DNA of 64,000 nt from a virus (taxonomy: Duplodnaviria; Heunggongvirae; Uroviricota; Caudoviricetes). The stretch lies in the IMG/VR virus record IMGVR_UViG_3300029923_000009, one strand, 5' to 3'. A program made the translations under genes and the position numbers. The notes under the pieces are model-generated. The model was not told where the DNA came from, did not search any database, and worked only from the letters and a program-made list of their open reading frames with translations. Positions 9,099 through 63,271 of the stretch are shown here, piece after piece. Position 1 is the first letter of the stretch, and every line of letters begins with the position of its first letter.

Positions 9099-9638
9099 AT
9101 GAAAACTGAATCAATGACGGCAAGTGAATTTTCTAAATTAGTTTATTGTGGATGTTTACCAAAAGAAAATTATGTTAATGATTTAAAACAAATTAAATAT
9201 TTCAGTTATGATGATTTTGGCTGTCATTTTTATGGAAGTAAAGAATATAATGATTCGTTGGTGTTCGTGGTTTGTTATGATGAAGAACATATTTATGGAG
9301 TTACCAAATTTGCCTATTTTTCAAATGAAGAACACTATTCAATTTCTTATTGTTCAACAAATAAAAACTATTTAAATAAAGGTATTTGTTCTAAAATGGT
9401 TGATTTATTCACTTCTTATTTTTCACATAAATACAGTAAAGAAATTTTATATGTTTCACAATATTCGGTAAGCGGTTGGAAGTATTTAAGACCATTATTA
9501 TTAAATTTATGTAAACAAAAAGATATTTCTTTCAGAGATAATATTATTGGATATATGGATGATGATGCAAAATATAGTGATGAGTATTATACACTAAGGG
9601 ATATATCTATTAAAATAGTAGGGGAAAGGTTTTATTAA
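9099..9638 (+). CDS. hypothetical protein (179 aa)
   Basis: Track start 9093 is GTG; ATG at 9099; terminator plus TATCTTTGT upstream. Confidence 0.55.
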   Translation: MKTESMTASEFSKLVYCGCLPKENYVNDLKQIKYFSYDDFGCHFYGSKEYNDSLVFVVCYDEEHIYGVTKFAYFSNEEHYSISYCSTNKNYLNKGICSKMVDLFTSYFSHKYSKEILYVSQYSVSGWKYLRPLLLNLCKQKDISFRDNIIGYMDDDAKYSDEYYTLRDISIKIVGERFY

Positions 9639-9644
9639 CAAATT

Positions 9645-9680
9645 ACATTTTCAAATATAATTATTTTGATATATCTTTGT
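9645..9680 (+). promoter_or_regulatory. early-class promoter
   Basis: TTAACAAATTACATTTTC ... TATCTTTGT. Confidence 0.5.
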
Positions 9681-9707
9681 AGTATGAATTTTAAATGATA
9701 AACAATT

Positions 9708-10226
9708 ATGAATGTAGAAATTAAGAATATTAAAATCAGTTTAGGCAATAGTGACGAAACTTATTGTTTCAATGCCGATATTTATGCTGACGGTAAAAAA
9801 GTTGGATATGCAAAAAACAATGGTCGTGGTGGAAATACCGATTATAATAGATACCCTAAATTTAGCTATGATGATATTCGTGATATTGAAAATTATTTTA
9901 AGTCAATGCCTTGTAAAGAATATACATTAAATAATGAAATTTTTAAAATGAATTATTCACTTGAAAATTTTATTGATGAAGCAGTTGAAAAAAAATTGGC
10001 TGAAAGGGATGCTGCGAGATTGAAAAATAGAATGGAAAAGGATTTCCAAAAATATATTTGTTACAAAGTTGAAAATGGATGGAATTCAACGGGTTGGAAA
10101 AATTATACTATAACTCAAATGTTGGGTACACCAGTTGGTATGTCATTGATTCAAAAGACCGTTGATACATTAAAAGAAAAAGGCGAAAAGATTTTAAATA
10201 ATAATTTAATTGGTATAAAATTATAA
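9708..10226 (+). CDS. hypothetical protein (172 aa)
   Basis: ATG ORF; early promoter 9645-9680. Confidence 0.55.
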   Translation: MNVEIKNIKISLGNSDETYCFNADIYADGKKVGYAKNNGRGGNTDYNRYPKFSYDDIRDIENYFKSMPCKEYTLNNEIFKMNYSLENFIDEAVEKKLAERDAARLKNRMEKDFQKYICYKVENGWNSTGWKNYTITQMLGTPVGMSLIQKTVDTLKEKGEKILNNNLIGIKL

Positions 10227-10232
10227 AATATT

Positions 10233-10430
10233 ATGGAAATTGAACAATGGATTTGTATTGGTATTATTGTATTAGCTTTATTATGTTTAATAACTAAAGT
10301 GATTTATAGGTGGATAGTTATTGGTAACCTGTTATGTGCTTTAGGTCTTCATGATTTTGGAGATTCACAAAGTGGTGTAATGTTCAGTAATATAACTTGT
10401 AACAGATGCGGGCATACAGACATTGAATAA
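10233..10430 (+). CDS. small membrane protein (65 aa)
   Basis: hydrophobic N-terminus; CNRCGH at C-terminus. Confidence 0.45.
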   Translation: MEIEQWICIGIIVLALLCLITKVIYRWIVIGNLLCALGLHDFGDSQSGVMFSNITCNRCGHTDIE

Positions 10431-10486
10431 TTAACAAATTTGATTTTGATAACCAAAAGTAAAATATTATCTTTGTATATCAATTA
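10431..10486 (+). promoter_or_regulatory. early-class promoter
   Basis: TTAACAAATTTGATTTTG ... TATCTTTGT. Confidence 0.5.
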
Positions 10487-10516
10487 AAAATTAAAACAAT
10501 TTAAATAAAAAACATT

Positions 10517-40329: not shown

Positions 40330-40887
40330 ATGGAATTAAATGAGTTTGGTAGTAAAATCAAGGGTCTTATGGGCTTAAAAGAAAATAAACAAGTAAATGG
40401 TTTTGGTTGTGTGATGTTGTATGTCTACTTTCCAGAATTTAAAGAGTTACAATCTAAAATTGATGAGAAGGATTTATATAATGATGATACAAAGTCATAT
40501 GGTTTTGAAAAATCGGAACATATTACCCTTTTATATGGTCTCCACGAAGAAGTTAAAGATCAACAAGTTAAAGATATTATGAGTAAATTTGATTTTGAAG
40601 ATGTAGAAATTAAAAATGTTTCTTTATTTAAAAATGAAACATTCGAAGTACTAAAATTTGAAGTTTATAAAGAAAAGTATTTATCTAAATGTAATAAGGA
40701 ACTTTCAAAATTACCTAATACAAACGAATATAAAATATTTAATCCTCATTTAACACTGGCGTATTTAAAATTAGGTGAAGGTGATAAATATATTGAAATG
40801 TTTAAAGACCTGAAATATGAATTACAACCAACAAAAATAGTATATTCAAAAATAGATGGTTCGGAATTAAAAATAAAAATTGATTAA
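40330..40887 (+). CDS. 2H-superfamily phosphoesterase (LigT/ThpR- or Acb1-like) (185 aa)
   Basis: Two H-x-T-x motifs (EHITLLYGL and NPHLTLAYL) about 90 residues apart; ~185 aa, the typical size for 2',3'-cyclic phosphodiesterase / 2'-5' RNA ligase family. Confidence 0.65.
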   Translation: MELNEFGSKIKGLMGLKENKQVNGFGCVMLYVYFPEFKELQSKIDEKDLYNDDTKSYGFEKSEHITLLYGLHEEVKDQQVKDIMSKFDFEDVEIKNVSLFKNETFEVLKFEVYKEKYLSKCNKELSKLPNTNEYKIFNPHLTLAYLKLGEGDKYIEMFKDLKYELQPTKIVYSKIDGSELKIKID

Positions 40888-41371: not shown

Positions 41372-43504
41372 ATGAAAGAACTAACTAATTTAATGCAAGC
41401 ACAATTTGATAAGATGTGCGCTACTGGTAAACTTTTTAGGAGTGAAGTTACTGGTCAAAAAGTTTGGGATGTATATCTTCAAGCTTTTAATCCAGAAGAT
41501 AATCCTATTTTTCGAGATCCAAATTCAACAGTTCATAACTGTAATTTCTGTAAAAATTTTGTTCGTAGGTATGGTAATATTGTTGCTATTGGTGATGATA
41601 ATGAAATTATGTCTATTTGGGGTGTTGATGCACCTGAAGAGTATAAAAATTCAGCAAACACATTAAATAATTTAATAGCAAATTCTAAAATAGTTGAGGT
41701 ATTCTTTGAAACATATAATGAATTAAACTCATTACCTTATGAAAAGAATTGTACTAAAACACAAGCTACATTTAAATTAGGTGTTGAAAAAAATACAAAA
41801 AGGTATACGAAAGAGGAGGCTGAAATGTTCGGTGTTGTAAAGCCAAATGAAGAAATAACTTTCGACCATTTCAATTTATCTATATCAAAACAATTCGTTG
41901 ATCAAACTGGTTCTTCAGTTGAAAGTATAATTGGTAATTATAGAGATTCAAAAAATGTTTTTCAACGTGGGATGGAAGAAATTTCATTAGATACATTGAT
42001 ACTTGTAAAAGATTTAATCAATCAGGAGTCACTACTTGATGGTAAAACTCATTTATTTAAGGTTGAAAAAATGATCACGTTTAAAACAGAATATGAGTCT
42101 AAATCTCAAAAAGAGAAAGATAATTATTGCTGGGTGGCTTCATATAATAATCAGCTTGCTAAGTTCCGTAACGAACTGATTGGTGTACTTTGTAGTGAAT
42201 TGTCTGAGGGTAAGGAACTTAACGAAGCTTGTAAATCTTGGAATAAACGTGTTGATCCAATTAATTATATGAAAACAACTACCCCTATTACCAAGAAACA
42301 AATTGAGGAGGCAAAATTATTTGTAGAGGAAAATGGATTTGTCGAATCTTTTGATAGAAGGTTTGCTACCATTGATGATATAAAGGCATCCGAAATACTT
42401 CACGTTAATATGGGGGATGGATCTATTAAAAATGTTTCAATATTCGATAATGTAAAATCTACTTCGACAAGACACAAGAGGAGTGAATTCGATGGTATTG
42501 ATGAAGTTACAATTGATAAGTTTATGTCTGATATTCTACCTAATTGTACCTCTGTGGAAGCCTTTTTGTTAAGTAAACATGAGGGTAATTTGGTTTCACT
42601 TACCACTTCAAACAAGTCTGAAAGTAAGCCTATTTTTAAATGGAATAATAACTACTCTTGGACTTTTAATGGTAATTTAGCAGGTAAATCTCAAATCAAA
42701 GAAGCTGTTAAAGGACGTGGTGGAAATGTGATTGGTGATGTTAGAATAAGTTTGGCATTCCCTCTAACTACTGATGACTACGATCTTCACGTACAAGATA
42801 CTGATGGAAACCATATTTATTATTCAAATGTAAGACAAAAACACAACTCTTCTGGAATGCTAGATTTAGATGCTCAAGGTGTAGACGGTGCTCAAACCCC
42901 AGAAAAAAGAGTAGAAAACATAATATTTACAGATAAATCAAAAATAAAAAATGGAAATATAAAAATTTGGGTTGAAAATTACTCACAAAGAGGATTAAGA
43001 GTTCCATTTGATATTGAAATTGAAATTGAGGGTGATATTACAACATTAACATATGATAGGAATCATTCAGGTAATAAAGCTGAGGTCGGTAATATTGTAG
43101 TTAAAAATGGTATGTTTGAATTACATCCTGATGCTTATATGACTTTAAAGGAAAGTACAAATTTATCAAAAGAAGTTTATGGGTTGGAAACAAATAATTT
43201 TCATAAGGTTAACTTAGTATGCCTTTCACCTAACCATTGGGGTGATAATAATGTTGGTAATAAGCACTATTTATTTATGTTAGATGGTTGTAAATGTCCA
43301 ACAGATATTAGAAGTTTTCATAATGAAAACCTATTACCTGAATTGGCTGAACATAGAAAAGTATTGGAGGTACTTGGTGCGACTAATATGATTAAGCCAA
43401 CAGATAAACAGCTATCAGGTCTTGGATTTAATGCCACTGTAAGGGATGAGATAGTAGTTAGACTACAAGGTTCATTTAAAAGAGTTATCAAAATTAAATT
43501 TTAA
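41372..43504 (+). CDS. large hypothetical protein (710 aa)
   Basis: Longest ORF in the window; class-II promoter 41270-41287; no motif recognised by eye. Confidence 0.7.
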   Translation: MKELTNLMQAQFDKMCATGKLFRSEVTGQKVWDVYLQAFNPEDNPIFRDPNSTVHNCNFCKNFVRRYGNIVAIGDDNEIMSIWGVDAPEEYKNSANTLNNLIANSKIVEVFFETYNELNSLPYEKNCTKTQATFKLGVEKNTKRYTKEEAEMFGVVKPNEEITFDHFNLSISKQFVDQTGSSVESIIGNYRDSKNVFQRGMEEISLDTLILVKDLINQESLLDGKTHLFKVEKMITFKTEYESKSQKEKDNYCWVASYNNQLAKFRNELIGVLCSELSEGKELNEACKSWNKRVDPINYMKTTTPITKKQIEEAKLFVEENGFVESFDRRFATIDDIKASEILHVNMGDGSIKNVSIFDNVKSTSTRHKRSEFDGIDEVTIDKFMSDILPNCTSVEAFLLSKHEGNLVSLTTSNKSESKPIFKWNNNYSWTFNGNLAGKSQIKEAVKGRGGNVIGDVRISLAFPLTTDDYDLHVQDTDGNHIYYSNVRQKHNSSGMLDLDAQGVDGAQTPEKRVENIIFTDKSKIKNGNIKIWVENYSQRGLRVPFDIEIEIEGDITTLTYDRNHSGNKAEVGNIVVKNGMFELHPDAYMTLKESTNLSKEVYGLETNNFHKVNLVCLSPNHWGDNNVGNKHYLFMLDGCKCPTDIRSFHNENLLPELAEHRKVLEVLGATNMIKPTDKQLSGLGFNATVRDEIVVRLQGSFKRVIKIKF

Positions 43505-47312: not shown

Positions 47313-48344
47313 ATGAAAAAACTTTGCAAATTCTCGGACATAGGTCAATTTAGGGAAATTTATTCAACAATTAAACATAGAACGCAATACATTGGTAAGG
47401 ATGAAAATGGGGACTGTATGTATGATACAACAATTCCTCTTCCAATTATCAAAGTTTCAGGTACAATAAAAATTGATGGAACAAACGGAGGGATTTCAAT
47501 GAATAAAAATGGTGAAATCTGGGCTCAATCAAAAGACAATATATTGACTTTAAAGAATGATAATTATAATTTTGCTTTCACGTTAGAATCAAAAAAAGAT
47601 GTTTTTAAAGATCTACTAAATAAAATTGATTTCAAAGGATATGATTACATAACTATTTTTGGTGAATTTGCAGGAAAAGGGATACAGGCTGGAATGGCCG
47701 TATGTCAGCTTCCAAGAATATTTGTTATATATGACATTAAGCGATCATATGAAGATAATTCAAAAGGTGATAATAAATATGCGCCAATAGATCAAATTAA
47801 ACTATTGCGTTCACCTGAAAATGATATTTATAACATATATGACTTCCCAACGTTTGAAGTTGAAATTGATTTTAACGAGCCTCAGGCAGCTTTAGATAAA
47901 CTAACTGAAATAACTACCCAAGTTGGTATTAAATGCCCATTTGGTGACGCTATGGGTGTTGAAGGTAGGGGAGAAGGCATAGTTTACACTTTCTTTACTG
48001 AAACTGGTGAAAAACTTAGGTTTAAAGTAAAAGCCGAAAAAAGTAAAATTTCAAAAACGAAGGAATTGGTTGCAATCGATATAGATAGAATGAATTCAAT
48101 TAATGAATTTATTGAGTATGCTGTTACTGAAAATAGATTAAACCAAGGGCTTGAAAAAATATACGGTAACGGAGTTTTGTTTATTGAGAAGATGGGTGAT
48201 TTCTTGAGATGGTTAGCTAATGATATTATTAAAGAAGAAACAGATGTTTTGATTGGGAATAATTTGGAACCAAAAGCCGTTACAGGTGGTATATCAAAAA
48301 AAGGTAGAGATTGGTTGTTGGCTAAAATAAATAATTTCGAATAG
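47313..48344 (+). CDS. ATP-dependent RNA ligase, Rnl2-like (343 aa)
   Basis: Covalent nucleotidyltransferase motifs: I KIDGTN (cf. T4 Rnl2 KIHGTN), III IFGEFAGKG, IV GEGIVYTF, V LRFKVKAEK; length close to T4 Rnl2. Confidence 0.8.
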   Translation: MKKLCKFSDIGQFREIYSTIKHRTQYIGKDENGDCMYDTTIPLPIIKVSGTIKIDGTNGGISMNKNGEIWAQSKDNILTLKNDNYNFAFTLESKKDVFKDLLNKIDFKGYDYITIFGEFAGKGIQAGMAVCQLPRIFVIYDIKRSYEDNSKGDNKYAPIDQIKLLRSPENDIYNIYDFPTFEVEIDFNEPQAALDKLTEITTQVGIKCPFGDAMGVEGRGEGIVYTFFTETGEKLRFKVKAEKSKISKTKELVAIDIDRMNSINEFIEYAVTENRLNQGLEKIYGNGVLFIEKMGDFLRWLANDIIKEETDVLIGNNLEPKAVTGGISKKGRDWLLAKINNFE

Positions 48345-48379
48345 AAGTTAATTAATTTGGGTTATTGCGGTTTAAATAT

Positions 48380-48388
48380 TACCTTTGT
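48380..48388 (+). promoter_or_regulatory. -7 box TACCTTTGT
   Basis: 30 nt before ATG 48418. Confidence 0.35.
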
Positions 48389-48417
48389 GGCTAATTATTA
48401 AAAAAACAAAATATATA

Positions 48418-49131
48418 ATGAAAAAAGAATTAAAGCAATTTAAAATATTAAGCGAGTACGATTATAATCTAAAAAACACACAAAAAAGGTTATTTGAATC
48501 ATTTGTAACCATATCGGAAATAAATCGATATTCACATAGATTATCTGAATCGTTGTCTATGGAGTTGGATGCTACAAATTTAACCGAATCTGGTGATCAA
48601 CAAAATGTCTTGGATTTAATCGGTAGTAACCAATATGATGTTAATAATAATATTGAATTTAAGAATTCATTAAAATATGGTAATCGTGGTGAATTTTTAA
48701 GTGATTACACCGAAGATGAATATGGACAAATGAAAACATATAAACTGAAAGGTTATAATATTGGGTTTGCTATTAAGTTGGATGGTGACATAGTTTCACT
48801 TCATAATAATAGTGGTATTGGTGGGTTAGGTGGAGCTTTAGTTAAATCAGCTGTATCATTAGGTGGCACTAAAATGGATCATTTTGATGGATTTTTAACA
48901 GGATTATATTCAAAAAATGGGTTTAATGTTGTTAATTCAGATCAATGGAACGATGATTATTCCCCATCTGATTGGAAATACGTACCTGTAGACATATTTA
49001 ACCCTGATAGCTCGATTTACGCAAATACATTGAAGAAATTCCCAAGTGAAAATGAAATTACTCCAGAATTAAAACAGGAAATTAACTTATATGGTTCTGG
49101 AATGCCAGATGTTGTGTATCGCTCACTATAA
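48418..49131 (+). CDS. protein with C-terminal GNAT-like acetyltransferase fold (237 aa)
   Basis: Track start 48385 is TTG; ATG 48418; GIGGLGGALVKSAVSLG and GLYSKNGFNVV resemble GNAT motif A and the C-terminal GF motif. Confidence 0.5.
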   Translation: MKKELKQFKILSEYDYNLKNTQKRLFESFVTISEINRYSHRLSESLSMELDATNLTESGDQQNVLDLIGSNQYDVNNNIEFKNSLKYGNRGEFLSDYTEDEYGQMKTYKLKGYNIGFAIKLDGDIVSLHNNSGIGGLGGALVKSAVSLGGTKMDHFDGFLTGLYSKNGFNVVNSDQWNDDYSPSDWKYVPVDIFNPDSSIYANTLKKFPSENEITPELKQEINLYGSGMPDVVYRSL

Positions 49132-49151
49132 TATAAAAATTTAAATTTATA

Positions 49152-49853
49152 ATGTTTCAAAGCCTATTATTACACATCCCCCATTCAAGTACTTACATTC
49201 CAGATTCTTTTGGAAATATTAATGACTACACATTAATGGGAAATGTTGTTATTCAAACAGATTTATTAGTTGATGACTTATTTTACCACCCAGTAACTAC
49301 AAATGTTAAAACATTAAAATTTATTTATAGTCGGTTTTATTGTGATGTGGAAAGATATTGGGATGACAAAAAAGAACCAATGTCACTAATTGGACAGGGT
49401 GTATATTATAAACAATATTCTGATGGTTCATTAATTAATAGAACCGACTCAAAGGATGATATTAAATTAGTTTACAATGAGCATCACTCAAAATTAAACT
49501 ATATTTCCCAAAAACTTATTGCGGAAAATGGTTCTTGTTTAATCATTGATTGTCATTCTTTTACACCAACGAATGAAAATGAGCCAGATATATGTATTGG
49601 GGTTAATTATGATAAAAATGACCCAGGTCCTGAAACATTATGGTCTATTATAAATCATTTTATTGATAATGGGTATAAATTTAAGATAAATTATCCGTTT
49701 TCAGGATCAATATATCCATCAAAATATTTAAATAAAAACTTAAAATCTATTATGATTGAAGTAAATAAAAATATTTATTTGGGTAATGAGATTAAGTTTT
49801 CGAAATTAAAAAATACAATAAACGAATTATATCATAAATTGTTAAAATATTAA
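49152..49853 (+). CDS. N-formylglutamate amidohydrolase (FGase) family protein (233 aa)
   Basis: HIPHSSTYIP, SRFYCDVERY, LIIDCHSF and SIMIEVNKNIY resemble the conserved blocks of the FGase/zinc-amidohydrolase family (PHxG..P / sRlvvDvNR / DlHS / iEirqdLy). Confidence 0.5.
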   Translation: MFQSLLLHIPHSSTYIPDSFGNINDYTLMGNVVIQTDLLVDDLFYHPVTTNVKTLKFIYSRFYCDVERYWDDKKEPMSLIGQGVYYKQYSDGSLINRTDSKDDIKLVYNEHHSKLNYISQKLIAENGSCLIIDCHSFTPTNENEPDICIGVNYDKNDPGPETLWSIINHFIDNGYKFKINYPFSGSIYPSKYLNKNLKSIMIEVNKNIYLGNEIKFSKLKNTINELYHKLLKY

Positions 49854-50572
49854 TGAAAAATAAACTTTCAATTGTTGCAATTTCCGACCTTCACGGGTAT
49901 CTACCTGAAATAACCGAAGAAGCTGATATAATGATCATCGGTGGGGATATTTCTCCTTTAAATATTCAACGTAATAAACCTAAAACGAAAATTTGGCTTG
50001 AAACAACGTTTCTCGAATGGGTCAATAATTTACCAGTTAAGAAAGTATTCCTTGTGGCTGGTAATCATGATTTTGCGTTAGAGGGTTTATCTGATACTGA
50101 AAAATATTTTTTTGAAAAATTATTTGGCGGAAAACTTAAATATTTAGAAAACGAAACATTTAACCACGTTGATGATAACGGTTGTTCTTGGGTGATTTTT
50201 GGAACGCCTTATTGTCACATATTTAGTTCTGGTTGGGTATTTATGATACCAGATGATAATATGTATTTCAAATTTCTGAAAATTCCAGATGAAGTTGATA
50301 TAATTATTTCTCATGACCCGCCTTATGGTGTTGGTGAAGTTGATGTTATTTTGGAACAATATAATTTAAATGAACCAATCACGCATATTGGAAATAAACC
50401 TTTAGCAAAAAGATTGCAACAAATCAAATATAAATTTCTATGCTGTGGTCATATACATAGTGGTAGCCATATACCATATGAATTTAATGGTGGAAAATGT
50501 GTAAACGTTTCGATCAAAGATGAAGATTACCAACCAATCTATCATCCATTTTATTATACATTAGAAAAATGA
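49853..50572 (+). CDS. calcineurin-like metallophosphoesterase (239 aa)
   Basis: Motifs DLHG, GGD, GNHD, HD and GHIHSGSH in the canonical order; TAATG overlap with the upstream gene. Confidence 0.8.
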   Translation: MKNKLSIVAISDLHGYLPEITEEADIMIIGGDISPLNIQRNKPKTKIWLETTFLEWVNNLPVKKVFLVAGNHDFALEGLSDTEKYFFEKLFGGKLKYLENETFNHVDDNGCSWVIFGTPYCHIFSSGWVFMIPDDNMYFKFLKIPDEVDIIISHDPPYGVGEVDVILEQYNLNEPITHIGNKPLAKRLQQIKYKFLCCGHIHSGSHIPYEFNGGKCVNVSIKDEDYQPIYHPFYYTLEK

Positions 50573-50973
50573 TAGAACTAATAATATTTATAGGACTTAT
50601 CTTGGTGATCTCTTGGTATGGTGTTAAAGTATCAATAGGTGGTGCAAGTTTTGAAATATTTCCAATTAAACGATTTTTTACTAAATTAAATGTGATTAAA
50701 ATACAAAAAAAAGTAAACAAACAAGCTATTAGCGATGTACAAATGGGTGATTTCGGTAGATGGCTTGAAAAAAATTATGTTGGAGAATTTAATATTTATA
50801 ACACAACAATCACACCACCGAAAAAATTAGAAATATCAGATTTAATCGAAATATATAAAAAAGAAGTATTAAACTATAATGATACTTGCCCATTTTGTAA
50901 TTCAAAACACCTTCACTCATTTGTATTAAAACACACGAAATGTAAATCCTGTGACCAAATGTGGACTGATTAA
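50569..50973 (+). CDS. membrane-anchored zinc-ribbon protein (134 aa)
   Basis: N-terminal TM helix; C-terminal CPFCNSKH...CKSC; ATGA overlap. Confidence 0.5.
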   Translation: MIELIIFIGLILVISWYGVKVSIGGASFEIFPIKRFFTKLNVIKIQKKVNKQAISDVQMGDFGRWLEKNYVGEFNIYNTTITPPKKLEISDLIEIYKKEVLNYNDTCPFCNSKHLHSFVLKHTKCKSCDQMWTD

Positions 50974-51246: not shown

Positions 51247-51468
51247 ATGAAAAATAATAATAATATTAAAACTGGAATAATCGATATTGATAATATATTA
51301 TCAAATGGGATTAATCCAACTGAATTAGAATTAATTATTGGCCCACCAACAGTTGGTATGAAACATATGTCAGTATATATGGAAAGAGCTAAAAGATTAA
51401 TGAAGGAAGCTGGTATTGGCGTTATTGAAACTAATACAGACCCAATTATAACTATCTGTAATGAATAA
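51247..51468 (+). CDS. hypothetical protein (73 aa)
   Basis: ATG ORF. Confidence 0.45.
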   Translation: MKNNNNIKTGIIDIDNILSNGINPTELELIIGPPTVGMKHMSVYMERAKRLMKEAGIGVIETNTDPIITICNE

Positions 51469-52162
51469 CGACACTATTAAAATATGTTTCATAGGGGACA
51501 TCCACGGAAAATCTGTTTGGAAAAAATTCATAAAAGATCCAACCATTAACTTTTTCGTGTTCTCTGGTGACTATGTTGATAATGATATGGGTATGGTTAT
51601 TTCTGATGAAGAAATGATTGAAAATTTTCAAGACATTATTGATTTCAAACGTAAAAATATGAATAGTGTTATTGTCCTAAAAGGGAACCACGATTTAAGT
51701 TACTGGTATTTAAACTATCCAATATTTAAATGTTCTCGTTTTAGGGAAAGTATTGCGATGGAACTAAACGACCTATATTCTTTCAATAAAGATTTATTCC
51801 AAAACGCTTGGCAATATAAAAATGTGGTTGCGACTCACGCTGGAATACAACATAATTGGTTTATAAACGAGTTTAAAGGTGATATCACACTAAACGTAGC
51901 TGATCAACTAAATAATCCGAAAGATGAAAATCAGTTAAATGCATTATATCAAGTTGGTAAAATTAGGGGTGGGTGGAAAGATGTTGGTGGTATATTTTGG
52001 GCTGATAAAAGTGAACTTAATAAATCATTAAAAGGAGTTATTCAGGTTGTTGGGCATAATAGAGTTAAAGATATTTCATATTATATAAATAAAAATTATG
52101 GTGAAATATATTTTATTGATTGCTTAGGCTATAAAGAAAACTGTCTAATATTAGAACTATAA
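51461..52162 (+). CDS. PPP-family (lambda phosphatase/ApaH-like) metallophosphatase (233 aa)
   Basis: GDIHG ... GDYVD ... GNHD motif series, spacing as in GDxHG/GDxVDRG/GNHE phosphatases. Confidence 0.75.
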   Translation: MNNDTIKICFIGDIHGKSVWKKFIKDPTINFFVFSGDYVDNDMGMVISDEEMIENFQDIIDFKRKNMNSVIVLKGNHDLSYWYLNYPIFKCSRFRESIAMELNDLYSFNKDLFQNAWQYKNVVATHAGIQHNWFINEFKGDITLNVADQLNNPKDENQLNALYQVGKIRGGWKDVGGIFWADKSELNKSLKGVIQVVGHNRVKDISYYINKNYGEIYFIDCLGYKENCLILEL

Positions 52163-53315: not shown

Positions 53316-54188
53316 ATGAAAAAAGAAACCTTAAGAGAAAACATAGCAAAACTTGTTAGAAGCGGAATTCAGGAAATAAAAGAAAAACAATTCATAACTG
53401 AAGACCTTATCACATTCGGTAGTGGAAGACCTAATTACGATCAGGTTGTTATCTTAGCTGGTGGTACGGGGGTTGGTAAAGGATTTGTATTAAATAATCT
53501 TGTTGGTATACAGGGGAAAGTTTTTGATGTAGACCAACTAAAATCTCTTGGTATAAGAAGTAAGTTGATTAAAGACAAGGTTTTAAGTTTAACAGGTAGA
53601 GATATTACTGAACTTGATTTACGTAATCCTTATGACGTTTCATTTCTACACGATGTATTCAAAGAACTACAAATTGCCGATAAGCAAGTTGAAAATTTAT
53701 TAAATGCAATGGTTGGAAGAGAAAATAAACCTAATTTGATTTTTGATGTTACCCTCGCAAATTTAGCAAAATTAGAATATGTTTCAAATCAAGTTGTTGA
53801 ATATGGTTATTCAATGGAAAATATTCATATTGTATGGATAATTAATGATATTGAGGTTGCAAGAGCTCAGAATAAAAATAGACCAAGGGTTGTATCGGAA
53901 GCTATGTTTACACAAATTCACGATCAAGTATTTCTTAGTTTAAAAAATATACTTACAGGTAGATTTCCAATCTTAGATTATATGAGCGGTGATTTTTATA
54001 TTGTTTTTAACCAAAAGAATGTCGATACTGAAATGTCTTTTTCACCAATGGGCGGAAGATATGTAAATAAAACAAACTATATTAAAATCAAAGGAAAAAA
54101 TAAACCAATGAAAACCATTGATGAAATAACCCAAGCTGTTATTGATAAAATAGTTCTTTATTCTGGAACAGACAACACACCGCTATAA
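53316..54188 (+). CDS. P-loop NTPase, possible (poly)nucleotide kinase (290 aa)
   Basis: Walker-A-like VVILAGGTGVGKGF near the N-terminus; hhhhD-like IFDVT later; which kinase family is not resolvable by eye. Confidence 0.5.
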   Translation: MKKETLRENIAKLVRSGIQEIKEKQFITEDLITFGSGRPNYDQVVILAGGTGVGKGFVLNNLVGIQGKVFDVDQLKSLGIRSKLIKDKVLSLTGRDITELDLRNPYDVSFLHDVFKELQIADKQVENLLNAMVGRENKPNLIFDVTLANLAKLEYVSNQVVEYGYSMENIHIVWIINDIEVARAQNKNRPRVVSEAMFTQIHDQVFLSLKNILTGRFPILDYMSGDFYIVFNQKNVDTEMSFSPMGGRYVNKTNYIKIKGKNKPMKTIDEITQAVIDKIVLYSGTDNTPL

Positions 54189-55391: not shown

Positions 55392-55949
55392 ATGAAGTAC
55401 CTATTTCTTGATTTTGATGGTGTTTTAAACGTTATACCCGAAGGATTTGATGATTTTGGTTCGATATTTCATAAACATTTTGTGTCAAATCTTAAACGAA
55501 TAATTGATGAGACTGATTGTAAGATCATAATTACATCTTCTTGGAGACAAAGTGGTTTAAAATTTATTCAAGATATGTGGGGATTTAGAAATTATCCAGG
55601 GGAAATACTTGATGTGACACCTACACTACGGTTACAAAAAGGTGGTTCTATTCAATTTTGGAATGATAAATTATCAAGGCACCCAACAGAATCAATTGGT
55701 GGATATTCAATACCAAGAGGGTGTGAAATAGAATATTGGCTCAATCACGAAAGTGAAAAATTTGGAGAAATTGAATCGTGGGCTTGTGTTGACGACGACA
55801 CAGATTTTTTATTTAACCAAAAAGATAACTATGTTCAATGTAGCGAAAACCATGATCACATAGATAAAATAGATTACGGTTACGGTTTAACAGATATATG
55901 TACACAAAAGGTAATTGATATTCTAAATAATGTTAAAATAATTGCTTAA
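55392..55949 (+). CDS. HAD-superfamily phosphatase (185 aa)
   Basis: Motif I FLDFDGVLN (DxDGV), motif II IIITSSW, motif IV CVDDDTD; class-II promoter 55357-55370. Confidence 0.7.
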   Translation: MKYLFLDFDGVLNVIPEGFDDFGSIFHKHFVSNLKRIIDETDCKIIITSSWRQSGLKFIQDMWGFRNYPGEILDVTPTLRLQKGGSIQFWNDKLSRHPTESIGGYSIPRGCEIEYWLNHESEKFGEIESWACVDDDTDFLFNQKDNYVQCSENHDHIDKIDYGYGLTDICTQKVIDILNNVKIIA

Positions 55950-60689: not shown

Positions 60690-60869
60690 ATGAATATGAA
60701 AAATAAAAAAACAACAATTAATTTTACGATTGATCCAGATCTAAAATATGATTTTATTAAAATTAGTGATGAATTTGGTTTTAATAGATCTAAAATGATT
60801 TCTAATTTTATTAGAAAATGGTGTGAAGAAAATAAGAGTATTAACAATTTAAAGAATGACGAAAGATGA
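60690..60869 (+). CDS. putative ribbon-helix-helix (Arc/CopG-like) DNA-binding protein (59 aa)
   Basis: ATG ORF absent from the track, which shows a minus-strand ORF here; TTINFTIDPDLKYDFIKISDEFGFNRSKMISNFIRKW fits a beta-strand + two-helix RHH pattern; its stop overlaps the start of 60856 by 14 nt. Confidence 0.4.
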   Translation: MNMKNKKTTINFTIDPDLKYDFIKISDEFGFNRSKMISNFIRKWCEENKSINNLKNDER

Positions 60870-62142
60870 ATTTATTAAAAAAGCAAAAGCAAAACATGGT
60901 GACAAATATGATTATTCACTGGTTGAATATGTAAAATCAAATATCAAAGTAATCATAATTTGTCCAGAACATGGCGAATTTTTACAATTACCAAATTCCC
61001 ATTTGGTGGGTAATGGGTGTAACAAATGTGGAATAAAATTAAAAAGTGATAAACTTAGGCACAACAATGATATTTTTATCTCTAAAGCAATTGTGATACA
61101 TGGAGATAAATATAATTATACTAAGATAGATTATAAAAATGCTCAAACTAAAGTATGTATCATTTGTCCTATACATGGTGAATTTTGGCAAACACCAAGT
61201 GATCATTTACAAGGTAGGGGATGTTCTATGTGTGGAAATGTTAATAGATCTTTAAGCAAAACTAATAATACTGAATACTTTATTAAAAAATCTAATAAAA
61301 AACATAATTTTAAATATGATTATTCCAAGACTAATTATGTAAATAGTGAGAGTGACGTATGTATAGTTTGCCCAGAACATGGGGAGTTTTATCAAAAAGC
61401 TAATTCACACATGATTGGTTATGGATGTTCTAAATGTGGCGGAAACTTTATGGATTTAGATACATTCATTGAAAAATCTAAAGAAAAACATAATAATAAA
61501 TTCACATATGAAAATGTTGATTACATAAATTCAATAATTAAAGTAGATATAACATGCCCGATTCATGGCGAATTTTGGCAAACACCAAATAGTCATTTAG
61601 ATGGTAAAGGATGCCCTAAGTGTTCAGGTAGTTATATGGATTATAATTATTTTATTGAAAAAACAAAACTAATTCATAGAGATAAATATGATTATTCAAA
61701 GGTAGAATATAAAGGAACCAATATAAAGGTTAAAATAATATGCCCTATTCACGGAGAATTTTGGCAAACACCTCATAATCATTTAAAAGGTCAGGGATGT
61801 CCTAAATGTAATGAAAGTAAAGGTGAAAAAATTGTAAATCAAACATTAACAAATTTTAAACTTAAATTTATTCGGGAACATAAATTTGATGATTGTAGAT
61901 ATAAATATTCTCTCCCATTTGATTTTTATATTCCTAAATATAATACTTGTATTGAATACGATGGGGAACAACATTATAAACAAGTAGATAGATTTGGTGG
62001 AATAGAAGGTTTTGAATCAATTCAAAGAAATGATAAAATAAAAACCCAATATTGCCTTGATAATAATATTAAGTTAATTAGAATTCCTTATACGGAATTT
62101 AATAATATAGAAGAAATATTAAATAAAGAAATTTATGATTGA
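60856..62142 (+). CDS. multi-zinc-finger protein with C-terminal Vsr/DUF559-like PD-(D/E)xK nuclease domain, candidate homing endonuclease (428 aa)
   Basis: Five tandem ~45-aa modules (CPxHGEFxQxPxxHLxGxGCxKCg); C-terminus PFDFYIPKYNTCIEYDGEQHY...QRNDKIKTQYCLDNNIKLIRIP matches the DUF559 very-short-patch-repair-like endonuclease pattern. Confidence 0.65.
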   Translation: MTKDEFIKKAKAKHGDKYDYSLVEYVKSNIKVIIICPEHGEFLQLPNSHLVGNGCNKCGIKLKSDKLRHNNDIFISKAIVIHGDKYNYTKIDYKNAQTKVCIICPIHGEFWQTPSDHLQGRGCSMCGNVNRSLSKTNNTEYFIKKSNKKHNFKYDYSKTNYVNSESDVCIVCPEHGEFYQKANSHMIGYGCSKCGGNFMDLDTFIEKSKEKHNNKFTYENVDYINSIIKVDITCPIHGEFWQTPNSHLDGKGCPKCSGSYMDYNYFIEKTKLIHRDKYDYSKVEYKGTNIKVKIICPIHGEFWQTPHNHLKGQGCPKCNESKGEKIVNQTLTNFKLKFIREHKFDDCRYKYSLPFDFYIPKYNTCIEYDGEQHYKQVDRFGGIEGFESIQRNDKIKTQYCLDNNIKLIRIPYTEFNNIEEILNKEIYD

Positions 62143-63271
62143 AAATTTAATTTTTGAAGCTATTGTTGGTAGCGTTGCTTATGGTACAAATATTGAAACC
62201 AGTGATTTAGATAAAAAGGGTATTTTTTTATGCCCTATTGATAATTTATTATCATTTGGCTATACCGAGCAAATTAATGTAACTAAAGATGAAACGTACT
62301 ATGAGGTTCGTCGATTTTTAGAATTATGTTCTGTCGGAAATCCGACCTGTTTAGAATTGCTATTTTCTGATGATGAATATATTTTACATACATCACCTCA
62401 ATTTGAACTAATACGTGAAAATAGGGATGTGTTTGTAACAAAAAAATGCGCAAATGCCTTTACTTCATATGGTTACAGTCAGATTTCAAAGGCAAATTCG
62501 TTGGGTAAAAAATTAAATTACAATGAAAATGATTATAAATTAAAGACACCTTTAGATTTTATATATTTTTATAATAATGGTAAAACATATTCTTTTAAAG
62601 AATATTTGAACGACAATGGGCTATTACAAGAAAAATGTGGCTTAGTTCGATTGGATCATATGAAAGATTGTTATGCCGTTTATTATGATTACAATAATGA
62701 TGGTTATAGAGGAATAATTGGTGAAAATAGTAATGAGGTTAGATTGTCATCTATTAAAAAAGGAGAAACGCCATTTGTGATGATATATTATAATGTTGAA
62801 GCATATTCAAAGTTCATGAAGGAGTGGAAGGAGTATAATGAATGGTTAAAAAATAGGAACACCCAAAGATATGTTGATGTTAAAAAGCACGGACAAACTC
62901 TAAGTGGTTCATTTATAGATGGTAAGAACCTATTGCATTGTCGGAGGCTCATCGATGTGGGGGTTTCGATTGCCACTACAGGCACTTTTACCGTTAAACG
63001 CCCAAATGCCGACTATTTACTTTCAATCAAACGTGGTGAAGTTCCTTTAGATAAAATAATTGAAGATGCAGAACGCGATATCGCTGGTTTACAGGAATTG
63101 TATGATAAATCAAATTTACCAGAAAAAGTTGATCCACTATTTGTAAAAGAATTATTACTTAAGATTAGGAAAATGCCAATTGATGATATTAATATAATAT
63201 CAACCAAAAGCCTTCCATTTGATTCTAATAAAATAATTGATGAAATATTAAATGAAGAAATTAAACAATGA
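62135..63271 (+). CDS. Pol-beta-superfamily nucleotidyltransferase, RlaP/PF10127-like (378 aa)
   Basis: N-terminal IVGSVAYGTNIETSDLDKKGIF (GS-x9-SDxD NTase motif) followed by RFLELCSVGNPTCLELLFS, which resembles the second conserved block of the family; ATGA overlap. Confidence 0.65.
   Translation: MIENLIFEAIVGSVAYGTNIETSDLDKKGIFLCPIDNLLSFGYTEQINVTKDETYYEVRRFLELCSVGNPTCLELLFSDDEYILHTSPQFELIRENRDVFVTKKCANAFTSYGYSQISKANSLGKKLNYNENDYKLKTPLDFIYFYNNGKTYSFKEYLNDNGLLQEKCGLVRLDHMKDCYAVYYDYNNDGYRGIIGENSNEVRLSSIKKGETPFVMIYYNVEAYSKFMKEWKEYNEWLKNRNTQRYVDVKKHGQTLSGSFIDGKNLLHCRRLIDVGVSIATTGTFTVKRPNADYLLSIKRGEVPLDKIIEDAERDIAGLQELYDKSNLPEKVDPLFVKELLLKIRKMPIDDINIISTKSLPFDSNKIIDEILNEEIKQ

Follow-up and report, generated by a model that had tools for sequence, protein, structure and literature searches.

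GNAT effectors carried by mobile elements can acetylate host or defence proteins, as exemplified by AcrVA5. N-acyltransferases also take part in acyl 'protect/deprotect' or dual-detoxification pairs, among them ArgA/ArgE, DapD/DapE, and the MccE-CTD GNAT with the MccF peptidase, the last of these acting on aminoacyl-nucleotides. In phages, GNATs have been described within polyvalent proteins, where a counter-defence or host-modifying role is predicted for them (Iyer, Burroughs, Anand, de Souza, & Aravind, 2017; PMC5512222), and the phiKMV-like Rac is a further phage GNAT effector (cited in PMC7824862). Two other phage strategies are relevant to the locus considered here: the T3-type SAM lyase and SAM-AMP lyase (PF23780; PMC12255297), and T4-type heal-and-seal RNA repair, which comprises Pnkp and Rnl and extends to the RlaP, HAD-SAK, and 2H repertoire of jumbo phages (PMC7824862).

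In the 64-kb stretch of phage DNA analysed here (the window), an earlier note had singled out five consecutive genes as a translationally coupled block, perhaps directed at nucleic-acid or nucleotide modification. The + strand carries all five ORFs where that note had placed them, and from ORF1 to ORF5 the successive junctions are gaps of 73 nt and 20 nt followed by overlaps of the form TAATG and then ATGA. The coordinates, overlaps, and gaps thus stand, but the distinctiveness of the block does not: tight spacing is usual throughout the window, where 77% of + strand intergenic gaps are shorter than 80 nt (median 18 nt), and runs of + strand genes spaced this closely reach 17 genes. Promoter-like and terminator-like sites are no commoner than in shuffled sequence. 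As a conserved unit, a five-gene operon for RNA repair or modification is not supported, since only the GNAT and the FGase-family amidohydrolase recur together in other genomes. The functional unit is instead the pair of ORF2 (48418-49131) and ORF3 (49152-49853), a two-enzyme phage module that apparently has no prior description.

ORF2 (+ strand, 237 aa, counted from the ATG chosen by gene callers and shared with homologues) is a virus-specific GNAT-fold acyltransferase and one half of the core of the conserved pair. Two long N-terminal helices (residues 2-52) precede a GNAT core that runs from about residue 70 to residue 237 and displays the mixed beta-sheet, the beta4-beta5 splay, and the flanking alpha3 and alpha4 of that fold. 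The GNAT assignment made from the sequence at the outset therefore holds at the level of fold and fails at the level of sequence profile: no Pfam family, including Acetyltransf_1/3/7/10 and related GNAT profiles, matches at E<=0.1, there is no NCBIfam match, and the profile of the ORF2 family retrieves nothing significant from PDB sequences. In place of the canonical Q/R-x-x-G-x-G/A loop after beta4, ORF2 carries a variant G-x-G-[IL]-G (G136, G138) downstream of DIVSVHNN, and H129, N130, N131, D154, H155, D157, and Y164 are near-invariant in the family. Two more familiar identities were considered and discarded. A LuxI-type acyl-homoserine-lactone synthase is not indicated by an autoinducer-synthase profile or by EsaI, LasI, or TofI as the closest structural match, and for a type II GNAT toxin-antitoxin of the TacT/AtaT kind the partner is the wrong one, being an FGase enzyme, with no DUF1778/RHH match among the proteins of the block. 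The GNAT domain family to which ORF2 belongs is large, with 3,782 clusters, and scans for close relatives place it almost wholly in viruses. Pattern scans of representative genomes of 185,579 species yielded only three matches to close relatives, all on short MAG contigs, one of which has the pair.

ORF3 (+ strand, 233 aa), the other half of the pair, belongs to the FGase family (PF05013) of metal-dependent N-acyl-amino-acid amidohydrolases. The match scores 114.8 bits against a threshold of 28.9, with residues 4-210 covering profile positions 2-219 of 219, so the family assignment first made from the sequence alone is significant by HMM, and the protein has the fold of solved N-formylglutamate amidohydrolases. 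Across 40 homologues, D65, E67, H135, and E203 are conserved in every sequence and H11 in 39; these residues align with the motifs of PDB entry 2q7s and, by analogy with it, are predicted to have metal-binding or catalytic roles. ORF3 differs from HutG (PF05013; PDB 2q7s, 2odf): it reaches 21.1 bits against a TIGR02017 cut-off of 278.75, its clade has conserved cysteines (C64, C134, C148) beside the predicted metal ligands that are missing from the aligned 2q7s sequence, and its phage members have a GNAT as partner. No histidine-utilisation genes were found near it. ORF3 is accordingly an FGase-family amidohydrolase and not a HutG orthologue.

The association of the two enzymes extends over dozens of unrelated phages. 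An ORF2-type gene lies within 400 nt in 40 of 47 dereplicated viral FGase clusters, as FGase followed by GNAT on the same strand in 19, GNAT followed by FGase in 15, and on opposite strands in 6, and the pairing is found across several deep ORF2 clades. From the other side, an FGase is adjacent in 38 of 74 ORF2 clusters. Neither enzyme is strictly dependent on the other, since every second ORF2 gene has no FGase beside it and ORF2 is missing from four FGase clusters. At the ORF2 loci without an FGase, its place is not taken by a peptide deformylase or by another amidohydrolase. This asymmetry, in which a viral FGase nearly always accompanies a GNAT while the GNAT is often alone or a virion domain without an FGase, could be taken to mean that the GNAT places a mark that is harmful unless checked and that the FGase reverses it for timing or self-protection, as writer and eraser or as a toxin with an enzymatic antitoxin. 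The overlapping stop and start codons of many pairs, and a PT-TG pre-toxin domain in one polyvalent relative, would fit such an arrangement. Yet many lytic phages carry the GNAT solo with no antidote, and a typical antitoxin (RHH/DUF1778) or immunity gene is absent. We regard this explanation as distinctly unlikely, and it overlaps in part with the reversal of capping discussed below.

DNA-methylase and nucleotide-metabolism genes are prominent in a Pfam census of 149 neighbours of pairs, and the general neighbourhood includes RNR, ThyX, DHFR, TK, IMPDH, adenylosuccinate synthetase, and DnaB. The dominance of such nucleotide-metabolism genes, and the adjacency of MetK in three loci, would be expected if the two enzymes had no shared function and were auxiliary metabolic genes for amino-acid or one-carbon salvage, for example deacylating N-formyl or N-acetyl amino acids to yield glutamate or methionine, co-inherited in a nucleotide-metabolism module. 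Such a coincidence is very improbable: adjacency survives both gene orders, both orientations, and clades down to 34% identity, and the GNAT recurs in ejected polyvalent proteins, an atypical site for metabolic enzymes.

The remaining genes of the block behave differently. ORF1 (47313-48344, + strand, 343 aa) is an Rnl2-like ATP-dependent RNA ligase and ORF4 (49853-50572, + strand, 239 aa) a canonical calcineurin-like metallophosphoesterase, both as originally identified. ORF1 matches PF09414 (4.5e-11, 43.6 bits; threshold 27) and phrog_548 (1e-48) and has the KxDGxN lysine motif (KIDGTN, from K53), EGIV at 221, and FKVK at 237; with 26.9 bits against a TIGR02307 cut-off of 197.15, it is Rnl2-like only and was rejected as an Rnl2 orthologue. 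ORF4 matches PF00149 (3.6e-13, 50.8 bits; threshold 21.5), phrog_1649, and PADLOC PDC-S10 (4.6e-37), with DLHG, GGD, GNHD, SHD, and GHIH all visible; a single distant homologue lies 3.5 kb from the pair in locus L124, and there is none elsewhere in about 130 loci. ORF5 (50569-50973, + strand, 134 aa), a small protein whose N-terminus is hydrophobic and whose C-terminal part bears a CxxC...CxxC motif, has no family match in Pfam, PHROGs, NCBIfam, or PADLOC, and its homologues are confined to contigs of the same phage. Outside this phage, an ORF1-type ligase accompanies the FGase in just three lineages, directly upstream in L094, a distant phage, at 2.9 kb in L009, and at 4 kb in L111 (L111/L113), and neither a GNAT nor an FGase was found in three ligase-anchored loci. 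The check proposed in that note, whether ligase, FGase, and GNAT co-occur in other phages, is thus borne out for the last two, whereas the ligase is no regular partner. With its weak and sporadic link to the FGase, ORF1 is more plausibly part of the dispersed RNA-repair set of the window, which also includes a 2H-like protein (40330-40887), HAD_SAK_2 (at 55392), and RlaP (at 62135) and is scattered over about 23 kb. We take the ligase, both phosphoesterases, and the TM/zinc-ribbon gene to be neighbours independent of the pair, in a region where genes for accessory functions, RNA repair, and counter-defence abound.

The abundance of RNA-repair genes in the window is one of the attractions of an RNA-directed module, in which the ligase would seal, the phosphoesterase would heal, and the GNAT and FGase would attach acyl or aminoacyl groups to tRNA or another RNA or take them off again, for instance by deacylating N-acetyl- or N-formyl-aminoacyl-tRNA or by editing an amino-acid-bearing tRNA modification. 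Consistent with such a module are the ligases near the FGase in the three lineages named above, the fusion of the GNAT to 2H and AAA_33 kinase domains, both of the end-healing type, the presence, at several loci, of RlaP, HAD_SAK, or tRNA genes no more than about 5 kb from the pair, and the location of one pair (L051) inside a 16-tRNA array. However, the three ligase-anchored loci mentioned above are devoid of both enzymes, ORF4 and ORF5 are essentially restricted to this phage, and RNA_ligase, RlaP, and HAD_SAK are not among the 25 most frequent families in the neighbour census. The polyvalent-type 2H domains are not associated with RNA ligases, and signal degradation has been proposed for them instead (Iyer et al., 2017; PMC5512222). 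A link present at about 5-20% of loci is, moreover, explicable by co-location in large-phage accessory regions. Although the window resembles T4-type heal-and-seal systems in its complement of Rnl2-like ligase, RlaP, HAD_SAK_2, and 2H-like genes, these are dispersed here, the pair elsewhere is not enriched for them, and GNAT and FGase are not described as components in that literature (PMC7824862). We consider an RNA-directed module rather unlikely. Nothing points in particular to the specific proposal that the enzymes reverse an aminoacyl adduct on RNA, and RNA-repair genes are not enriched in the census. The broader idea of a nucleic-acid or nucleotide substrate retains some indirect support from the 2H and AAA_33 fusions, the SAM lyase and MetK links, and the sporadic RlaP, HAD_SAK, and tRNA genes.

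The GNAT domain is also found in an ejected-effector setting. ORF2-type domains form the C-terminus of minor capsid proteins encoded beside the portal gene (Microbacterium phage Caron and a Methanobrevibacter virus), occupy residues 1385-1513 of a 3,125-aa Limnohabitans phage protein that also contains ART-PolyVal, and appear in proteins of 800-2,950 aa with PBECR3, PT-TG/DUF7178, PcfJ, or 2H domains; one of the BFVD matches is annotated 'Large polyvalent protein associated domain-containing protein'. The domain therefore occurs both in large multidomain proteins with ART/PolyVal domains and as solo phage genes, which parallels the polyvalent-protein GNATs (PMC5512222), likewise found solo and embedded in giant virion-delivered proteins with ART-PolyVal, PBECR, and 2H, a likeness of fold and domain context. 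In contrast to the present family, no FGase partner is mentioned there (0 occurrences of 'formylglutamate' and 'amidohydrolase'), and SAM-lyase or AAA_33 fusions were not found mentioned. Other partners are linked to small molecules or nucleotides. In L128 the GNAT is fused to a SAM lyase (PF23780), which in L086 separates the two members of the pair, in L123 directly follows the GNAT, and in three further loci is found at 1-3 kb; MetK is immediately beside the pair in L009, L014/15, and L128; in L054 the FGase comes after a fusion of a 2H (Acb1/LigT-like) domain with the GNAT; and P0270 is a GNAT-AAA_33 kinase fusion. Of roughly 110 loci, SAM-related genes occur at only about 9, and this 64-kb window has no such gene, SAM lyase included.

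With AcrVA5 and Rac the pair would have in common a phage-encoded GNAT that alters a host component, but those act alone on proteins, without an amidohydrolase partner. In a protein-directed version, the GNAT would transfer an acetyl group to the N-terminus or a lysine of a host protein, be it RNA polymerase, a ribosomal protein, or a defence protein, and the FGase-like enzyme would strip an N-formyl or N-acyl block, such as that of fMet, to free the amine, or else erase the mark. Protein substrates are also what Iyer et al. predicted for the polyvalent-protein GNATs (PMC5512222), which counts against a small-molecule mechanism. Against a protein target, the only FGase activity described is on a small N-acyl amino acid; no deformylase or amidohydrolase substitute appears at FGase-less loci; the Naa and RimI structures are often retrieved by generic GNAT models; and SAM lyase, 2H, and AAA_33 act on small nucleoside compounds. 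On balance, a protein-directed effector seems rather unlikely.

We infer with moderate confidence that the two genes serve counter-defence or host takeover, and with the same confidence that the GNAT is the primary effector and the FGase an accessory dependent on it. The fuller reading is the one we favour, tentatively and at somewhat less than even confidence: a counter-defence module in which an amine is acylated and deacylated, possibly on a SAM-type metabolite. It draws on the pairing, the two folds, the restriction to viruses, the ejected-effector setting, and the small-molecule or nucleotide partners described above. In the mechanism proposed, at low confidence, the GNAT would take an acyl group from acyl-CoA and with it cap the primary (alpha-)amine of a small molecule that bears an amino acid, such as a compound of S-adenosylmethionine type or an amino acid linked to a nucleotide. 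The FGase would hydrolyse the matching N-acyl amide, and might do so before capping, to unmask a blocked amine, or later, reversing the capping so that the phage recovers the metabolite. Such a scheme resembles ArgA/ArgE, DapD/DapE, and MccE-CTD/MccF in that one enzyme N-acylates, and the other hydrolyses the amide at, the alpha-amino group of a single amino-acid-bearing small molecule, an analogy that is mechanistic only, as those hydrolases have M20 and S66 folds and those pairs serve cellular pathways or immunity and are not phage modules. In several phages the ORF2-type GNAT is fused to, or has as its neighbour, a member of the family of T3-type SAM lyase and SAM-AMP lyase (PMC12255297). 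With these lyases the pair shares a setting, in which a cofactor or signal that host defence relies on is depleted or destroyed, although the folds of ORF2 and ORF3 are unrelated to that of the lyase and a common substrate is only a conjecture.

Several observations weigh against the favoured reading: the SAM-related genes are at few loci, each of the two enzymes also occurs without the other, the CoA-binding loop of ORF2 is only a variant in a protein with no GNAT profile match, and the RNR, ThyX, DnaB, and DHFR surroundings could just mark an early or middle metabolic module. Fused polyvalent-protein domains may also be co-deployed without a common substrate (PMC5512222), which counts against shared-substrate logic. 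In its most specific form, the GNAT would N-acylate the alpha-amino group of SAM or a SAM derivative (SAM-AMP, the type III CRISPR signal, or the homoserine lactone produced by SAM lyase), and the FGase would be the matching N-acyl amidase, for a reversible 'amine-capping' of a cofactor or immune signal; this version we hold to be quite improbable. In the GNAT-SAM lyase fusions, the two halves would together carry out both LuxI-type steps, N-acylation of SAM and then lactonisation releasing MTA, so that some phages could make an AHL-like molecule.

Guilt-by-association is the main route to phage counter-defence enzymes, and the ORF2-FGase pair is a clear case. It corrects the original reading, in that the ligase and the phosphoesterases fall outside the module and the two-gene unit is the relevant object. 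An amidohydrolase family known only from histidine catabolism is, in phages, almost always beside a virus-specific acyltransferase, and that same acyltransferase is also packaged into the virion and joined in fusions to enzymes with an established anti-defence role (SAM lyase, Acb1-like 2H phosphoesterase, and ART). Were the target SAM, a SAM-derived signal, or another amino-acid-bearing nucleotide, the pair would represent a new strategy in which reversible N-acylation neutralises immunity cofactors or messengers; were it a protein, it would provide a writer/eraser pair for a family of at least 2,000 clusters that has no Pfam model.

The window is AT-rich, with a GC content of ~27%, and carries all of its ORFs of at least 150 aa on the + strand. 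Since metagenomic contigs as long as 263 kb encode identical ORF2 and ORF3 proteins, it is part of a jumbo phage, of which it covers 64 kb out of at least 263 kb. The five consecutive genes noticed earlier at 47313–50973 are all present on that strand, namely, an Rnl2-like RNA ligase (ORF1, 47313–48344), a GNAT (ORF2, 48418–49131), a protein of the N-formylglutamate amidohydrolase family (FGase; ORF3, 49152–49853), a calcineurin-like phosphoesterase (ORF4, 49853–50572), and a protein that is hydrophobic at its N-terminus and has a CxxC...CxxC tail (ORF5, 50569–50973). Their junctions are as the earlier note described: ORF1 and ORF2 are separated by 73 nt and ORF2 and ORF3 by 20 nt, and the ORF3–ORF4 and ORF4–ORF5 junctions are TAATG and ATGA overlaps, respectively. 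Such tight spacing is not distinctive within the window, where + strand intergenic gaps have a median length of 18 nt, 77% of them are shorter than 80 nt, and the longest run of closely spaced genes comprises 17. Promoter-like and terminator-like sites occur in the window at the same counts as in shuffled sequence. By megablast against 50,697 phage records the block found no match, and the phage is without a close DNA relative there.

The conserved unit within this block consists of the GNAT and the FGase. Anchored searches yielded 64 viral loci for ORF2, 49 for the FGase, and 3 for the ligase; metagenomic contigs with diverged FGase homologues were added to the locus set, and the FGase and ORF2 clusters were dereplicated at 90% identity. 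Outside the source phage, co-occurrence of the two genes was amply borne out: an ORF2-type gene lies no more than 400 nt from the FGase in 40 of 47 dereplicated FGase clusters, and beyond 400 nt but within 5 kb in three more. The 40 pairs are arranged on the same strand as FGase–GNAT (19) or GNAT–FGase (15), or on opposite strands (6). Because adjacency outlasts these changes of order and orientation at 34–60% identity, it constitutes strong evidence of a functional link. The dependence of the FGase on the GNAT far exceeds the reverse, with an FGase adjacent in 38 of 74 ORF2 clusters and absent from 33. Pairing recurs in several deep ORF2 clades and is missing from a large, mainly marine one. 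In 15 loci of this FGase-less clade (L016–L031), a conserved protein of ~95 aa (NRHxLxEP...ILxPDD), GroES/Cpn10-like by eye, is encoded immediately upstream of ORF2.

When all window proteins were searched against the ORF2 loci, no further recurrent partner emerged. No replacement acyltransferase was evident by eye in four ORF2-less FGase loci, and no substitute amidohydrolase or peptide deformylase was found in the FGase-less ORF2 loci. One ORF2-less FGase, in locus L088 (3445–10057), sits by eye between terminase-like and portal/capsid-like genes and adjoins a protein with a HELGH zincin motif, a structural-module context unlike the others. In Vibrio phage vB_VmeM-32, the gene upstream of the FGase was rejected as an ORF2 homologue for lack of similarity, and the downstream gene proved unrelated to ORF4, matching instead a protein at 53316–54188 of the window.

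The remaining three genes of the block did not hold up as conserved partners. Neither GNAT nor FGase occurs in any of the three ligase-anchored loci, and ligase-family genes lie 4 kb from the FGase in L111 and L113 and 2.9 kb away in L009; a single ORF4 homologue was seen near a pair (L124, 3.5 kb off), and no ORF5 homologue was. Assignment of ORF1 as an Rnl2-like ligase is supported by family matches (PF09414, 4.5e-11; phrog_548, 1e-48) and the motifs KIDGTN, EGIV, and FKVK, but it scores far under the Rnl2 equivalog cut-off. Other RNA-repair genes are scattered around the block: a 2H-like phosphoesterase with weak LigT/Acb1 matches (40330–40887), HAD_SAK_2 (55392–55949, 4.7e-20), a CapR/DUF723/treble-clef protein (60856–62142), and RlaP (62135–63271, 1.2e-15). 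The ORF1 ligase probably belongs with this dispersed set and not with the GNAT and FGase. Family search confirmed ORF4 as a canonical calcineurin-like phosphoesterase; its full-length match to the PADLOC defence candidate PDC-S10 (4.6e-37) is odd for a phage gene, and a second metallophosphoesterase lies less than 1 kb away at 51461–52162. No family match was obtained for ORF5. A minor mismatch concerns the 710-aa protein at 41372–43504, where the precomputed annotation PF26675 (DUF8224) was not reproduced by our own Pfam scan at E ≤ 0.01, reflecting differing Pfam versions or thresholds.

Close relatives of the ORF2 GNAT are almost confined to viruses. Scans with short peptide patterns, which therefore reach no further than the clades closest to the query, gave only three matches in a set of representative genomes covering 185,579 species; the three lie on short MAG contigs, one of which carries the pair. 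In an exhaustive profile search with clustering at 50% identity, the family came to 3,782 clusters, of which 2,176 had E ≤ 1e-10, and many members sit within proteins of 500–2,950 aa; against PDB sequences, the family profile found nothing significant. In Microbacterium phages and a Methanobrevibacter virus, the ORF2-type domain forms the C-terminus of a minor capsid protein whose gene adjoins that of the portal; it also lies together with ART-PolyVal inside a 3,125-aa protein of a Limnohabitans phage. The latter, phage DC33 (PQ492659.1; polyvalent-protein locus L078, 7243–16620), also encodes an L-alanyl-D-glutamate peptidase, and its Inoviridae label looks doubtful given a 39-kb genome with this peptidase and a polyvalent protein of such size. 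Further co-domains in giant proteins include the PBECR3 RNase, PT-TG/DUF7178, PcfJ, or a 2H domain plus a second GNAT. Structural matches to ORF2 in BFVD are likewise domains of 990–1,440-aa phage proteins, one annotated [quoted passage not shown]. These contexts, solo and inside giant virion-associated proteins, agree with those of the polyvalent-protein GNATs, which also have solo versions and are predicted to enter with the DNA and modify host targets (Iyer et al., 2017; PMC5512222). The ORF2 type was probably described in 2017, and it has repeatedly been built into ejected multidomain effectors.

ORF3 matched PDB sequences by profile only, and as a single sequence gave none. In its clade, bacterial members included, C64 (CDVER), C134 (DCHS), and C148 (DICIG) are almost invariant, whereas the HutG-like structure 2q7s lacks them at the aligned positions; judged from the alignment, these cysteines may mean that the metal site or the chemistry is different. 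Long FGase homologues include no GNAT–FGase fusion, their extra N-terminal regions being Cys-rich, and cellular FGase contexts (Saprospiraceae, Flavobacteriaceae, Parcubacteria) are heterogeneous and uninformative.

Known counter-defence enzymes recur as fusion partners of the GNAT. In L128 (3131–6699), its N-terminus carries a SAM lyase (PF23780); elsewhere this enzyme lies between FGase and GNAT (L086, 6001–7995), follows the GNAT immediately (L123, 5995–8114), or is 1–3 kb off (three further loci). The SAM synthetase MetK adjoins the pair or ORF2 in L009, L014/15, and L128; the L128 phage encodes both SAM synthetase and SAM lyase, with MetK directly upstream of the fusion. In L054 (9431–11323), an intact Acb1/LigT-like 2H domain (HxT motifs DPHITILYG and KPHMTIAYV), homologous to the 2H-like protein of the window, is fused to the GNAT in a 370-aa protein followed by the FGase; a ClpP-like protease gene lies upstream. 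A 2H domain again accompanies the GNAT in the polyvalent protein P0334, and an AAA_33 kinase is fused to it in P0270, where a relationship of the kinase to the P-loop protein of the window was rejected for lack of similarity. DNA methylases are frequent neighbours of the pair, and the bulk neighbourhood, with or without FGase, is a nucleotide-metabolism and replication module (RNR, ThyX, DHFR, TK, DnaB, Pol III alpha). As for the substrate, nucleoside-type small molecules are suggested by the smaller fusions and by the genes directly alongside.

RNA-repair and tRNA elements occur only sporadically near the pair. RlaP lies at a distance of 3–5 kb in three loci, HAD_SAK is a neighbour in two, and tRNA genes fall within ~5 kb in ~7 of 50 loci; the 64-kb window itself holds none. 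In L051 (5014–18332, on a 148-kb viral contig), an array of 16 tRNA genes encloses the pair (9226–10501), and in L105 a tRNA-Ile(tat) directly follows the FGase, and only 250 nt separate the pair from a HAD_SAK homologue. The gene immediately downstream of the Vibrio phage FGase encodes a relative (42% identity, 9e-65) of the 290-aa P-loop protein at 53316–54188 (phrog_5268, weak Zeta_toxin match), and in L056 another homologue of this protein overlaps the ORF2-type gene at that gene's start. The P-loop protein is a possible third partner, if an occasional one. A ligase profile search also found, in a distant phage lacking ORF2 (L094), a member of the ORF1 ligase family immediately upstream of the FGase. 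Together with the 2H and kinase fusions, the L094 ligase and nearby tRNA genes lend some contextual support to the earlier proposal, one of two main rivals, of an activity directed at an adduct on RNA, but that proposal fails as a five-gene operon.

Functional readings of the pair are drawn from genome context and predicted structures. The other main rival is a protein target, which the two enzymes would deformylate at its N-terminus and acetylate, or serve as writer and eraser. Both folds were known already; our literature search found no paper connecting the FGase or ORF2-type GNAT with SAM lyases, nor the GNAT–FGase pairing and its SAM lyase and MetK links. Domains fused in polyvalent proteins need not share a substrate (PMC5512222), and substrate assignments are therefore tentative. 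In the mechanism that we favour, with low confidence, the GNAT would cap the alpha-amino group of a SAM-type or nucleotide-conjugate small molecule that bears an amino acid. The FGase, as a member of a family that hydrolyses N-acyl alpha-amino acids, would either unmask a blocked amine or later reverse the cap. We infer that the pair acts as a counter-defence or host-takeover module.
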